Source: Salpingoeca rosetta (lineage: Eukaryota > Protista > Choanoflagellata). Taken from it: a stretch of DNA of 64,000 nucleotides. Positions 827 through 7,916 of the stretch are shown here, in pieces. Made by a program: the position numbers and the translations under genes. Each line of letters begins with the position of its first letter. The first letter of the stretch is position 1. The DNA lies in contig JAWQFM010000029.1 in the NCBI GenBank assembly GCA_033442325.1, forward strand, positions 586,847 to 650,846, in the 5' to 3' direction. Below the pieces are notes generated by a model. The model was not told the DNA's origin and made no database searches. It worked only from the letters and a program-made list of their open reading frames with translations.

Positions 827-3800
827 CTAGTTGCATGCCCATGCACACGTGCCAGCAGTGTTGGACGAACGCAAGCGAGCAACACATGTGAGGGGCAGAC
901 GGAGTTGAATTGCGAGCAACGGTGAAACAGCAAGCAGAATATAGACGTGCTTGTGCGCTTGTGTGTGCGTCTGTGTGTGTGTGTGTGTGTCCAGACAAAG
1001 CTTGTCACTTGCCTGCAGACAATATGCACACATACCCCCCCACACACGCACGCACACACACACACACACGCACACACACCAAACATGGGTACGCAAGCAA
1101 GGACAACATTGCCGTACCATCGCCGCAGATGTAGGTGCAGGAGGGAAGCGCAGACCACGTGCCATCTGTCTGGCAGGTGATGGAACTGACATCGCCAACA
1201 AGCTGGAACCCCGTGTCGCACTCATACGACACAGTGGCCGGGTACCGGTGCATCATGGTGTTCTCTGGGTCGCCGTTCTCAATCTGCATGGGGTTGGGAG
1301 GGACGTGCAGTACACAAGGGGCACACGCACACAAAATGTGAGGACGGTCAAGTGTAGCACAATGAATAACCACACACCCTTGCTTGTCTCGCTTGCCTGC
1401 AGGCAACGTGCTTGCCTGCATGCAACCGAAACATGCACCTGGACTTCTCCATGCACCCCACAGCCTAACGTGCATGCACACACACACACACACACACACA
1501 CACACACACACACACACACACACACACACATACATGCATGGAGAAGACTCACGTCTCGCACGGGGTCGCAAGGGACACCGACGCAGCGGGTAAAGTCGCC
1601 GTTCTCAGTCTGGAACCCAGATTGGCATGGCTGGCACGACACGGAGCCAAAGTCCGGCTTGAAGTGGTTGGCTGGCATGCGGCGGTGATGATGGTGGTGA
1701 TGATGATGATGATGTTCGCACAAGCACGCAACAGAGCGCATTGGGCGTGAGGCACACAGGGAACATGTGAGACAACATCAGGTGCGAGTGCATGCAAGCA
1801 CAAGGACGTCGCTGCGTCGCTGCAACATGGGCCATTACCTCACAGCAACACAGATCCTTCTCCAACATGCACACACACACATACTTCCGTCGCCATCTCA
1901 CCTTGGCAGGGAACGCAGGTGCTTCCGTCGCCGCTGGGCTCGTGTCCAGCAATGCACTCGCACTTGGTCGCACCCGTCTGCCCGTTGGTCGACGTGCCAG
2001 AAGGGCACGAAGCACACGGCTGTGTCGGCGACGGCGCATACGAGTTGGCCGGGCACAGCTGGCACGAGGGCAGCTCGCCCCACGTCCCGTCCGTGCGGCA
2101 CGACAGCGTCGGCGCGCCAACCAGCCCATACCCAGGTGCACACGTCACGCTCGCATCAGCAGGGTACCGCCCAGATGTCGCCGACACCTGCGCGTGGTCA
2201 ATGCTCGGCGCCGTGCACAGCACTCCACGGCACGTCGGCGCAGGCGCAGACCACGTCTTGTCCGTCTTGCACGACAGCTGCGCCTGCCCAACAAGCTCGT
2301 ATCCGGGCACGCACGAGAACTCCGCCGTCGCCGGGTACCGCGCTGGCGTCGAGCTCAGGCGCAGGTGCCCGTTCTGCGGGTCGCTCAGTGGTTTGCATAG
2401 CACCCCCACACACGACGGCGCCGTGCCGCCAAATCCGCCCGAGCTGGCAATGCAGCTGCGCTGCGCATCCCCCGTGTCGCTCAGCTCATACCCAGCCTGG
2501 CACGTGTATGTAGCTGTGGACGGGTACTGCCGGCTGTTTGTGTACGAGACGCTGCCGTGGTTCGGGGTGTCCAGCAGGGTGCACAGCCGCCCAACACATG
2601 TCGGTGCGGCGACGACCACGGTGCCGTTCGCCTGGCACTGCGCAGATGTCGCTCCCATCAGCACGACCCAGTGTTGCACGAAAACCCTGCACACAAAAAN
2701 NNNNNNNNNNNNNNNNNNNNNNNNNNNNNNNNNNNNNNNNNNNNNNNNNNNNNNNNNNNNNNNNNNNNNNNNNNNNNNNNNNNNNNNNNNNNNNNNNNNN
2801 NNNNNNNNNNNNNNNNNNNNNNNNNNNNNNNNNNNNNNNNNNNNNNNNNNNNNNNNNNNNNNNNNNNNNNNNNNNNNNNNNNNNNNNNNNNNNACACACA
2901 CACACACACACACCTGCTGTGGATGGATGACGGATGGTGCTTGACGGTGACACGCTGCCGTGGGCAATGCTAATCCCTGGGCACGGCACGCCAATGCACC
3001 GCGGCATCGTCCCGGCCCACGTCTTGTCTGTCTGGCACTGCAGCTTGTTGTCGCTGGAGCTGGCCAGCATGTACCCTGGCGCGCACGTGTATGTCGCTGT
3101 GCTGGGATACCGCCCGTTGTTGCTGAGCGAGGACACACTGCCATGGCTCACGCTCGGTGGCGTGTTGCACTGCACGCCGACGCACTCGCCAGCGCTGGAA
3201 CCGCCGCACCCGGCGAGGTAGTACCCGGCCGCACACGACCCGCACGGGCTGCACGGCTGGTTGTCTTGTGACGTCTTGTATGTCCTGCAACGACAAGAAA
3301 GCAGCAACACAACGTTGCGTACATGCAAGCAAGGTGGTGTGTCCTTGTGTGAGGTCGCGCACCCGATAACACAAGCGAACGCACATATTGAGACACATGA
3401 ATAGAATACACTTGCACTTGCACGCACACACACATGCACACACAAGTGCATACACGCCCACACACGCACATGCCTCTGCATCCAGTTGCACGCACGACAT
3501 TGCATGTGCCATGCTGTGCACTCACCTCGAGTCACACGGCGAGCATGTGCCTGCGCTGGTGCCACTGCAGCCCGTGCGCTCAGAGCCTGCAGGGCACGAC
3601 CCACACGACGTGCACGAACCATCATTGCTGCCGCCGCAGTTGACGCGGTACTGGTTTGAGCCGCAGGAGCCGCACGGTGTGCATGAGCTCTGGCCGCTGC
3701 TGGCGCTGTACGTGTCGGGGCCACATGCAGTGCACGACGTGCCACTGCCGTAGTAGCCCGGGTTGCACGAGCACGATCCGTCACATGAACTGTCGCAGCT

Positions 3801-6800: not shown

Positions 6801-7916
6801 TATGCGTCTGGGATGCAGGTTGTCCAGCGCTTTGAGCCGTGGAGCTGGATGACAAGGACGTCGTAGGGGTCTGTGTGCGGCATGAGGGCGCGCGACTCGT
6901 TCTGCGTGGCGTGGTACAGGTGGACGGTGGACTCTGTGCCAAACACGTCGCGCACGCCGTCCTGCAGCTGCTTGACGTGGTCCTGGGCGGGGGAGTCCAC
7001 GAGGTCCTCGTAGCGGATGAGCAAACCAGCGCCGGCAGCCAGCTCGTCCTCCATCTGCTTGCATGACGACACCTGCCGCGTCTCGCCTTGCTCCTTGATC
7101 TGTGGATCATGTGTACGTTGTGTGTGTGTGTGTGTGTACATGTGTGTACGTGTGTGTACGTGTGCATGTGTGAGGGAATGAAGGTCGAGGTCAAAGTCGT
7201 GATTGAGGAAGGCAACGCACAAGGCCAAGGGCAAGGGGAGGAGGCAAGAGCGCTGAAAGCATGACGTGTATTACAAACACACAAACACACAAACGCACAC
7301 ACACACAAACACAGACACAGACACAGACACACCAGCACAGACACACACACAAACACTAACACAAACACAAACACTAACACACACACACAAACACACACAT
7401 CAACACAACAAAAACACTAACACAAACACGTACGTGGAAGCCGCCGCTCTGCTTGTCTTGCTGCTCAAAGGCGTGGCACAATGACTGCACTTGGTTCAGT
7501 GGCGTTGTGATCTGGCGCAGCCGCGGCGTGAAGGCGTCCGGCGTGGGCCGGTGGTCAATCAGCGTCTCATGCTGATACACGGAGTCAAAGAACACATCCC
7601 GGTCGCCAGTGAAGAAGTCCCCAAAGCTGAGCGGCACGGGCTCGTCGGTGTCGGTGGTGGTGGTGTCGGTGTCGGTGTTGGTTGTTGTTGTTGTTGTTGT
7701 TGTTGTTGTTGTTGTTGTTGTTGTTGTTGTTGTTGTTGTTGTTGTTGTTGTTGTTGTTGTTGTTGTTGTTGTTGTTGTTGTTGTTGTTGTTGTGTCGACA
7801 GGGACGTCTGCCGCTGTGGCAGAGGGGGGAAAACAACAACAACAACAACAAGCGGCAGCGACAAACACTGCAGCCACGACAACCCTCATTGTGCGCGATG
7901 CTGTCGTTGGTGACAT
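1..7916 (-). CDS. Large secreted multidomain protein: signal peptide, poly-Thr, JmjC (cupin-4/ROX-like) oxygenase, RVRR site, C-x-x-x repeat region, TNFR/GCC-like Cys modules, Sushi/CCP modules, Myxococcus-type Cys-rich repeat, HYR-like domains; 3' end runs off the window
   Basis: Hand-spliced GT-AG exons with consistent phases: 7916 (or 7889)-7434, 7099-5912, 5618-5548, 5418-5296, 5146-4985, 4855-4802, 4687-4617, 4488-4333, 4148-4028, 3849-3526, 3284-2914, ~2686-1902 (gap-adjacent indels), 1671-1553, 1283-1118, 826-<1. Hydrophobic N-terminus MRVVVAAVFVAAACCCCCCFPPSATAA. Sushi motifs such as YPSTATYTCAPGY...CQTDKTWAG. Confidence 0.8.
2700..2893. other. Assembly gap (others at 20490-20790, 40599-40698, 54315-54414, 57374-57473)
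   Basis: Runs of N, mostly adjacent to CA/TG microsatellites. Confidence 0.99.
3760..5585 (-). repeat. Coding C-[D/N/T]-x-x tetrapeptide repeat region spread over 8 short exons
   Basis: Spliced translation such as CNTGCDESCDTSSCNLGCDGGCTGGCDDSCTSCDTGCDICYSGCNTGCDVTTCTGSCDTGCDICTTGCDSLCDDSCNTGCDTGCNLSCDLGCDTGC. Hand count is about 69 Cys in about 270 aa. Confidence 0.85.
5912..7099 (-). CDS. Exon 2 of gene 1: JmjC / cupin-4 2-oxoglutarate Fe(II) dioxygenase domain
   Basis: Translation contains VHLYHAT...LMPHTDPYDVLVIQLHGSKRW (H-x-D iron ligands, 2OG-binding Lys) and FTLRAGDTMYMPKGIIHFA...SSHLTIS (distal His). This is the motif set of the NO66/MINA53/YcfD-type JmjC family. Confidence 0.9.
7682..7795 (-). 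repeat. (ACA)n trinucleotide repeat encoding about 38 Thr just after the signal peptide of gene 1
   Basis: Perfect (gtt)n on the plus strand, in frame as poly-Thr within exon 1. Confidence 0.9.

Follow-up and report, generated by a model that had tools for sequence, protein, structure and literature searches.

The window analysed here, a stretch of 64,000 nucleotides of Salpingoeca rosetta DNA (contig JAWQFM010000029.1), contains near its left end a minus-strand gene that encodes a JmjC oxygenase domain followed by a long array of regularly spaced cysteines. Splicing by program of 11 exons (Table 1) gives an open frame of 1041 amino acids with zero stops; all of the acceptors are AG and donors 1–10 are GT, and the last exon boundary, which adjoins a gap of Ns, is approximate in position. 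The order along the protein is a hydrophobic N-terminus, 38 threonines, the JmjC domain, PQM-ERVRR, an array of 68 cysteines, and EGF-like, TNFR-like and Sushi segments. A preliminary description of this DNA had proposed phase-consistent splicing that leads from a signal peptide through poly-threonine and an intact JmjC domain to RVRR and the Cys array, and the in-frame exons with their AG/GT sites agree with it; it had placed the gene at 3760-7916, of which the 7916 end stands but the 3760 end does not, as the gene runs to the left edge of the window. The downstream part is collinear with orthologs of 2800–3100 amino acids that end in a transmembrane helix and a tyrosine-rich tail (the collinear orthologs P0011, P0012 and P0015 have both, and no SH2 or kinase match), and from these orthologs the window protein is predicted to be a type I membrane protein of about 3000 amino acids with a Tyr-rich tail.

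Table 1. Features of the JmjC–cysteine array gene, in window coordinates.
Feature	Position	Strand	Content
Exon 1	7434-7916	-	signal-like hydrophobic N-terminus (about amino acids 10-35), 38-Thr run (7680-7793), start of the JmjC N-terminal region
Exon 2	5912-7099	-	MINA/NO66-type JmjC domain and C-terminal extension
Catalytic codons in exon 2	His236 6875-6877, Asp238 6869-6871, Lys251 6830-6832, His372 6467-6469	-	
Exon 3	5548-5618	-	RVRR and array Cys 1-3 (first Cys 5577-5579)
RVRR, predicted proprotein-convertase site	5604-5615	-	from the sequence and the conserved basic motif
Exon 4	5296-5418	-	N-arm, 10 Cys
Exon 5	4985-5146	-	N-arm, 14 Cys
Exon 6	4802-4855	-	N-arm, 5 Cys
Exon 7	4617-4687	-	5 Cys; contains the central aromatic loop CDFFGWSC (4648-4671), the symmetry axis
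Exon 8	4333-4488	-	C-arm, 14 Cys
Exon 9	4028-4148	-	C-arm, 10 Cys
Exon 10	3526-3849	-	final 7 array Cys (last 3771-3773), EGF-like CNPGYYGSGTSC segment, TNFR-like Cys-rich repeats
Exon 11	2913-3284	-	Sushi repeat
More exons of the gene	1-2694	-	Sushi repeats, then repeat stalk collinear with orthologs; gene exits the window

The RNA evidence comes from reads of four runs (X4, X10, X21 and X23) placed on exon 2; in the run search none of the runs containing the sequence was recorded as RNA, and read placement alone is used here. Exon 2 is covered in 30 of 30 bins in each of the four runs, with one of 204 reads in X21 and none of 116 in X23 running past the ends of the exon 2 stretch, and loose read ends map exactly to 5583-5612 in exon 3 and to 7434-7463 in exon 1. 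Seven reads of X21 and one X10 contig span the exon 1 to exon 2 junction, and the junction at 5912/5618, through which JmjC had been proposed to join the repeats, is confirmed by 12 reads of X21 together with contigs of X4 and X10; in run X23 exon 2 is covered and neither junction is represented. Because there are junction reads on both sides of exon 2, the signal peptide, the JmjC domain and the start of the array belong to a single transcript; for the junctions from exon 3 to exon 10 the support comes from the splice sites, from the uninterrupted frame, and from complete arrays in orthologs known from transcripts. Some loose ends in X4 have no counterpart in the window and indicate further paralogs.

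The array is mirror-symmetric. It occupies amino acids 569-837, and computation gives 68 cysteines, 42 of them followed by Asp and 11 by Asn, where a hand count had given about 69 and the same two values; the Cys spacing is 4 at 54 of the 67 intervals, and the array has 50 acidic residues and no basic ones. The sole 7-residue spacer, CDFFGWSC, divides it exactly in half, with 34 cysteines and 129 residues on each side, and the two 5-residue spacers of one arm mirror those of the other, being at ranks 21 and 31 counted outward from the loop (p 0.002 by shuffling); the Cys content of the exons around the tip likewise reads 10, 14 ... 14, 10. Direct tandem duplication was considered as the origin of this symmetry and rejected, there being no direct-register matches in the window protein, although it partly fits the paralog P0002, in which two 5-residue spacers match.

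Comparable symmetry is found in homologs with arrays of other lengths. The paralog PTSG_11500 has 20 cysteines on each side of CDTLWWDC with three mirrored spacers, and among the homologs as a whole the two arms number 24:24, 20:20, 19:19, 16:16 and 5:5. Seven of the 19 arrays with at least 14 cysteines pass a best-centre shuffle test with p of about 0.001 or lower (34:34, 20:20, 24:24 twice, 26:24, 27:25 and 16:16), and the exact midpoint by Cys count falls in a spacer of at least 6 residues in 22 of 36 arrays, where 7.2 would be expected. The same midpoint test, with the array rule used for the first set, was applied to 15 new JmjC proteins from an array-only search and gave 7 against 2.4 expected (P 0.004), and in an unrelated control of CxxxC proteins (PF27846) gave 3 of 17 against 2.2 expected. 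The fraction of cysteines followed by Asp or Asn is 0.65 in the JmjC-linked arrays and 0.18 in the unrelated CxxxC arrays. Since the arms co-vary in length, the pattern is best explained if each Cys pairs with its mirror partner, and in the secretory pathway such pairing would give disulfides nested as a ladder, whose tip is aromatic or aliphatic; on the sequence evidence we regard nested Cys(i)-Cys(69-i) disulfides as likely. The folded array would be a strongly acidic rod, very roughly 20–45 nm long, with a hydrophobic tip. The symmetry is absent from the preliminary description, and it probably recasts what had been seen as a repeat array into a folded hairpin. Structure prediction contributed little: AlphaFold2 gave a predicted local distance difference test (pLDDT) score of 40 for the P0002 array alone, which is uninformative; for P0051, with an alignment of 50 rows, it modelled the JmjC domain confidently and scored the array below 50; the complex of the P0051 JmjC domain with its own array scored 0.02, which gives no verdict and is used neither way; and a search of the ESM Atlas with the array produced no match usable by its features, with template modelling scores all under 0.4.

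The JmjC domain of the window protein matches Pfam PF08007 (E 1e-15), and the intact HTD...K...H centre previously noticed is present as H236-x-D238, K251 and H372. These supply the HxD...H triad and the 2-oxoglutarate-binding lysine, and Fe(II)/2-oxoglutarate-dependent activity is predicted accordingly by the sequence. Among array-bearing members the HxD His is kept in 29 of 32 and the Asp in 30 of 32 (ungapped), the Lys in 33 of 33, and the distal His in 36 of 36; a hydrophobic N-terminus is found in 28 of 32, the signal peptide being called by hydropathy only, without SignalP. The closest solved relatives by sequence are MINA53 and NO66, with the match limited to the JmjC core, and the predicted JmjC fold of the homolog P0051 is also closest to the ribosomal oxygenases (MINA53, NO66, YcfD and Bacillus subtilis YxbC), with which the family shares the HxD...K...H centre. 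Ribosomal oxygenases possess a C-terminal winged helix. They are intracellular and act on ribosomal proteins, whereas the window protein has a signal peptide, three family-specific cysteines conserved in the JmjC domain, and a fused array; given the signal peptide, the array and a match confined to the core, we do not regard it as a ribosomal oxygenase proper. The three conserved cysteines would suit an extracellular domain. A tree of 118 JmjC segments made by a quick method, with a presumed outgroup, is mostly unresolved and supports no claim of origin or transfer.

Of 36 array-bearing proteins, 28 have a basic motif, RxxR or dibasic, in the 16 residues that precede the array (background 0.14), and none of 17 unrelated CxxxC proteins has one, which is in keeping with the proposal of a convertase site between JmjC and the repeats. 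In the second set, 13 of 15 JmjC proteins have RxxR, a dibasic motif or RxL before the array, and diatom-type homologs have RxL immediately before it. Cleavage at RVRR is probable.

A full HMMER search returned 1329 matches at E ≤0.001, and the best 150 of these, together with P0001 and the window protein, form the set of 152 homologs analysed. Among these matches a C-[DNT]-x-x-C array is present in 36 of 152; a further 115 were aligned, of which 84 stop too close behind JmjC for a judgement and 31 are long. Array lengths in the family range from 6 to 68 cysteines. The array-bearing choanoflagellates belong to Salpingoeca, Hartaetosiga, Microstomoeca, Monosiga, Diaphanoeca, Stephanoeca and Bicosta, and members beyond them are found in the amoebozoan Sexangularia, the euglenid Ploeotia, and the diatoms Seminavis and Cylindrotheca (organism names come from 30 proteins that were looked up, and the diatoms from the array-only profile search). 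The unit of signal peptide, JmjC, basic site, hairpin, stalk and membrane anchor recurs across these four groups, and minimal members (P0051, P0111, P0122 and P0182) have a signal peptide, JmjC, basic site, array, transmembrane helix and tail and nothing else. The array-only profile search (E ≤10) retrieved 53 proteins, which are 20 with JmjC (15 of them new), 18 PF27846-labelled unrelated CxxxC proteins and 15 others; a single-sequence array search found two paralogs only and is too insensitive to use. That JmjC and an Asp/Asn-rich array co-occur repeatedly, in distant protists as well, is evident both in the 36 listed homologs and in 20 of the 53 array-only matches. Among the proteins without JmjC, P0170, P0171, P0173, P0175, P0184, P0191 and P0209 combine a signal peptide and a short pro-segment with a Cys array rich in Asp, and in most of them the array has a long central loop; they are possibly substrates in trans or enzyme-free hairpins. 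P0166 and P0188 have JmjC and a Cys array fused to a Hint module of the self-splicing type.

Within Salpingoeca rosetta the nearest named relative is PTSG_08991 (P0001), which is 99.5% identical over the JmjC core (181/182). Its downstream region is identical to the window protein at 194 of 199 positions and its array at only 136 of 214, so that the array diverges fast between otherwise near-identical paralogs, which suggests a variable surface probe. In the PTSG_08991 model the array is 34:20, with no counterpart of window exon 8 and its 14 cysteines, and the start lies after the signal peptide; the model is probably incomplete, and a missed exon is predicted. Elsewhere at the locus, the 38-Thr codon run and a six-Cys run (about 7833-7850) in the signal region are products of trinucleotide microsatellites whose lengths may vary, and the PF00020 match of the TNFR-like repeats in exon 10 is weak and under its cut-off. 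The upstream neighbour (8311-13709, minus strand), judged by eye from fragments of open reading frames, looks like a multi-exon flavin adenine dinucleotide-dependent oxidoreductase of the retinol saturase / phytoene desaturase type.

Extracellular JmjC proteins are not new. The text of Iyer et al. 2010 (PMC2938197) describes extracellular, receptor-like JOR/JmjC proteins of the MINA/No66 clade in Monosiga, whose other domains include Sushi, GCC2/3 and Ig. It predicts surface proteins to be the targets of their hydroxylation and treats the group as a Monosiga expansion; the enzyme family is thus known, and the preliminary description, which knew of no secretory JmjC in this architecture, is wrong in so far as it took a secretory JmjC to be new. 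The family described here shares with it the MINA/No66-clade JmjC, an extracellular location as read from the hydrophobic N-terminus, Sushi, Cys-rich and Ig-like domains, and, in homologs, cytoplasmic signalling parts, and six Monosiga proteins are among the matches listed, five of them array-bearing by the rule used; it differs in its range, which takes in many choanoflagellates as well as diatoms, an amoebozoan and a euglenid. The main text of PMC2938197 mentions no furin, cleavage or symmetric array and uses 'hairpin' only for the enzyme fold, and short arrays may be among the Cys-containing 'MSD' domains shown in its Figure 4. Literature searches found only this paper for the family and nothing on the array, which subscription journals and the supplement of PMC2938197 could hold; 10.1101/211789 mentions neither JmjC nor cupin. 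The window gene is a real, expressed member of a known, uncharacterised family, and its mirror-symmetric Cys module is apparently undescribed.

Other systems resemble the array or its processing in part. Vicilin-buried peptides, or alpha-hairpinins, of plants are reported (bioRxiv 10.1101/2020.05.26.118075) to form ladder-like nested disulfides between CXXXC motifs around a loop and to be cut from a precursor; as described there they are soluble, with two disulfides and Glu/Arg/Gln helices, whereas the window array has up to 34 predicted rungs, is rich in Asp/Ser/Gly/Thr, and would sit as a membrane-tethered tip, and we see no sign of homology between the two. In diatom silaffins, RXL pro-domains are removed by proteolysis (PMC5525289), and RxL also precedes the diatom-type arrays; the window protein uses RxxR, and the piece predicted to be removed is a whole enzyme. 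Bacterial and phage Cys-X-X-X proteins (TIGR04117-like radical SAM targets and PF27846) share a Cys at every fourth residue, but Asp/Asn follows only 0.18 of their cysteines, none of 17 has a basic site, a central loop is not enriched in them, and JmjC is absent. The PF27846-labelled proteins (P0162-P0164, P0169, P0172, P0176, P0186, P0196, P0202 and others) are large, apparently of phage or bacterial origin, and monotone in CxxxC, with up to 157 cysteines. A prokaryote scan for five C-D/N-x-x codon units (3/64 parts) gave 122 loci; nearly all of them are other repeats read out of frame, and two or three are short peptides resembling ribosomally synthesized and post-translationally modified peptides (RiPPs); these loci were not searched for JmjC genes. 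One of them, in a Prevotellaceae sequence (L043:3709-4014), encodes a leader and C-N-x-x repeat peptide directly after radical SAM/SPASM and glycosyltransferase-like genes; it is under all curated cut-offs and is possibly an undescribed RiPP.

The explanation that we consider best, with a likelihood that we put a little short of even, is that the gene encodes a surface precursor whose array forms a disulfide hairpin, is hydroxylated by the fused JmjC enzyme, and is cut at RVRR. The chain would enter the endoplasmic reticulum, where the array would fold back at its aromatic loop and zip into a disulfide-ladder hairpin; the tethered JmjC would hydroxylate Asp and Asn residues of the hairpin; a convertase would then cut at RVRR and the enzyme would be removed, leaving a modified acidic rod at the end of a long cell-surface stalk. 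The weakest step is the last, in which the mature hairpin, at the far end of the stalk, would act as a cation-binding adhesion or recognition probe. Whether the hairpin is the substrate of its own enzyme in the secretory pathway we judge to be an evenly balanced question. In favor of it, the adjacency of JmjC and array is kept across distant lineages, the catalytic residues are conserved, and Asp or Asn follows Cys far more often than in unrelated CxxxC arrays. A single chain carries an enzyme, a putative protease site and substrate-like repeats, the predicted anatomy of a self-modifying enzyme–substrate fusion. Such fusions are known from borosin or BURP types.

Several observations weigh against this explanation. 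Twelve of the 19 arrays fail the spacer-mirror test and 14 of the 36 fail the midpoint test; the point at which an array is taken to end was decided once the first set had been viewed, and because the homologs are related the pooled P values overstate independence. In the second set neither the end-to-end mirror score (4/15 in the family, 3/17 in the control) nor an even Cys number (14/15 and 15/17) separates family from control. Known CXXXC hairpins have helical arms, which the Gly/Ser/Asp-rich arms here do not resemble, and the nearest solved enzymes act, by their structure titles, on His or Arg rather than on Asp/Asn. The aspartyl hydroxylase AspH recognizes the consensus C-x-D/N-x4-F/Y-x-C-x-C in EGF domains, and no match to it occurs in the 1041 amino acids of the window protein. 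Of the 31 long homologs among the matches listed that have no array by our rule, 6 have a small hairpin-like motif and 25 do not. Repeats lacking JmjC and showing no co-occurrence pattern had been named at the outset as evidence against a self-modifying precursor; about ten Asp-rich arrays without JmjC exist (one or two may be truncated), while co-occurrence is repeated. Finally, in P0207 a Fic domain with an intact HPFxDGNGR motif occupies the JmjC slot before RMRR and a 30-Cys array, followed by the same run of EGF-like, TNFR-like and Sushi segments as in the window gene; there is one such record, and it may reflect either a genuine exchange of enzymes or an artefact of prediction. The JmjC-less arrays and the one Fic case indicate that JmjC is not obligatory in cis. 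The self-modification idea thus keeps its support from the single transcript, the conserved basic site, the catalytic residues and the co-occurrence, and loses its secretory-JmjC novelty, with the JmjC-less arrays counting against it.

These same observations bear on the alternatives. The hairpin could be an independent adhesion or recognition module, with JmjC a co-exported cargo that is cut off and modifies surface or matrix proteins in trans, as PMC2938197 proposes in its text for such enzymes; hairpins that have a signal peptide and basic site without JmjC (P0175, P0184 and P0209), the Fic domain in a close architectural relative, and JmjC homologs with no array would all accord with this. 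We nonetheless think it unlikely, in that JmjC and array remain adjacent over distant lineages while the stalk varies, JmjC-adjacent arrays are specifically Asp/Asn-rich, and the same enzymes could act in trans on hairpins that lack a JmjC of their own. That JmjC instead stays at the surface as the sensing head of a receptor, for oxygen, iron, 2-oxoglutarate or redox, with the hairpin as a tether or relay to an intracellular kinase, SH2 or Tyr-rich tail, seems distinctly unlikely to us; homologs do combine a transmembrane helix with a kinase (P0113), SH2 (P0063) or Tyr-rich tails, and a sensor role is suggested in PMC2938197, but a basic processing motif separates enzyme from array in most members, and the wide range of Cys numbers and the fast divergence of paralogs fit a variable probe better than a fixed relay.

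A further alternative dispenses with disulfides: the Cys thiolates would bind metal, or the enzyme would cross-link Cys to Asp/Asn carbons as in bacterial Cys-rich RiPPs. The proximity of radical SAM maturases to bacterial Cys-every-fourth peptides, as at L043, and the excess of acidic over basic residues in the array are in line with this. It is very improbable in our judgement, since the signal peptide implies an oxidising compartment, no curated NCBIfam model of Cys-repeat RiPPs was matched (0 families for P0001, P0002 and exon 2), and the loop-centred mirror symmetry, which is not enriched in the unrelated CxxxC set, is a prediction of Cys–Cys pairing.

In a wider picture, many protists would make a surface hairpin of tunable length (3–34 rungs), zipped by disulfides and hydrophobic at its tip. 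A JmjC pro-enzyme in the same chain, later cut off, would turn it into an array of beta-hydroxy-Asp/Asn, the whole being a RiPP-like precursor of enzyme and substrate displayed on a receptor stalk, possibly as an iron-chelating or prey-binding needle, with an enzyme slot that is exchangeable between JmjC and Fic; we offer this as a speculation that is more doubtful than probable. The hairpin predicted here would have up to 34 rungs, compared with 2–4 in known CXXXC hairpins, and its two arms lengthen together. We found no substrate of extracellular MINA/NO66-type enzymes in the searchable literature, and the Asp/Asn-rich module fused behind a processing site provides a concrete candidate for one, in a genetically tractable relative of animals.

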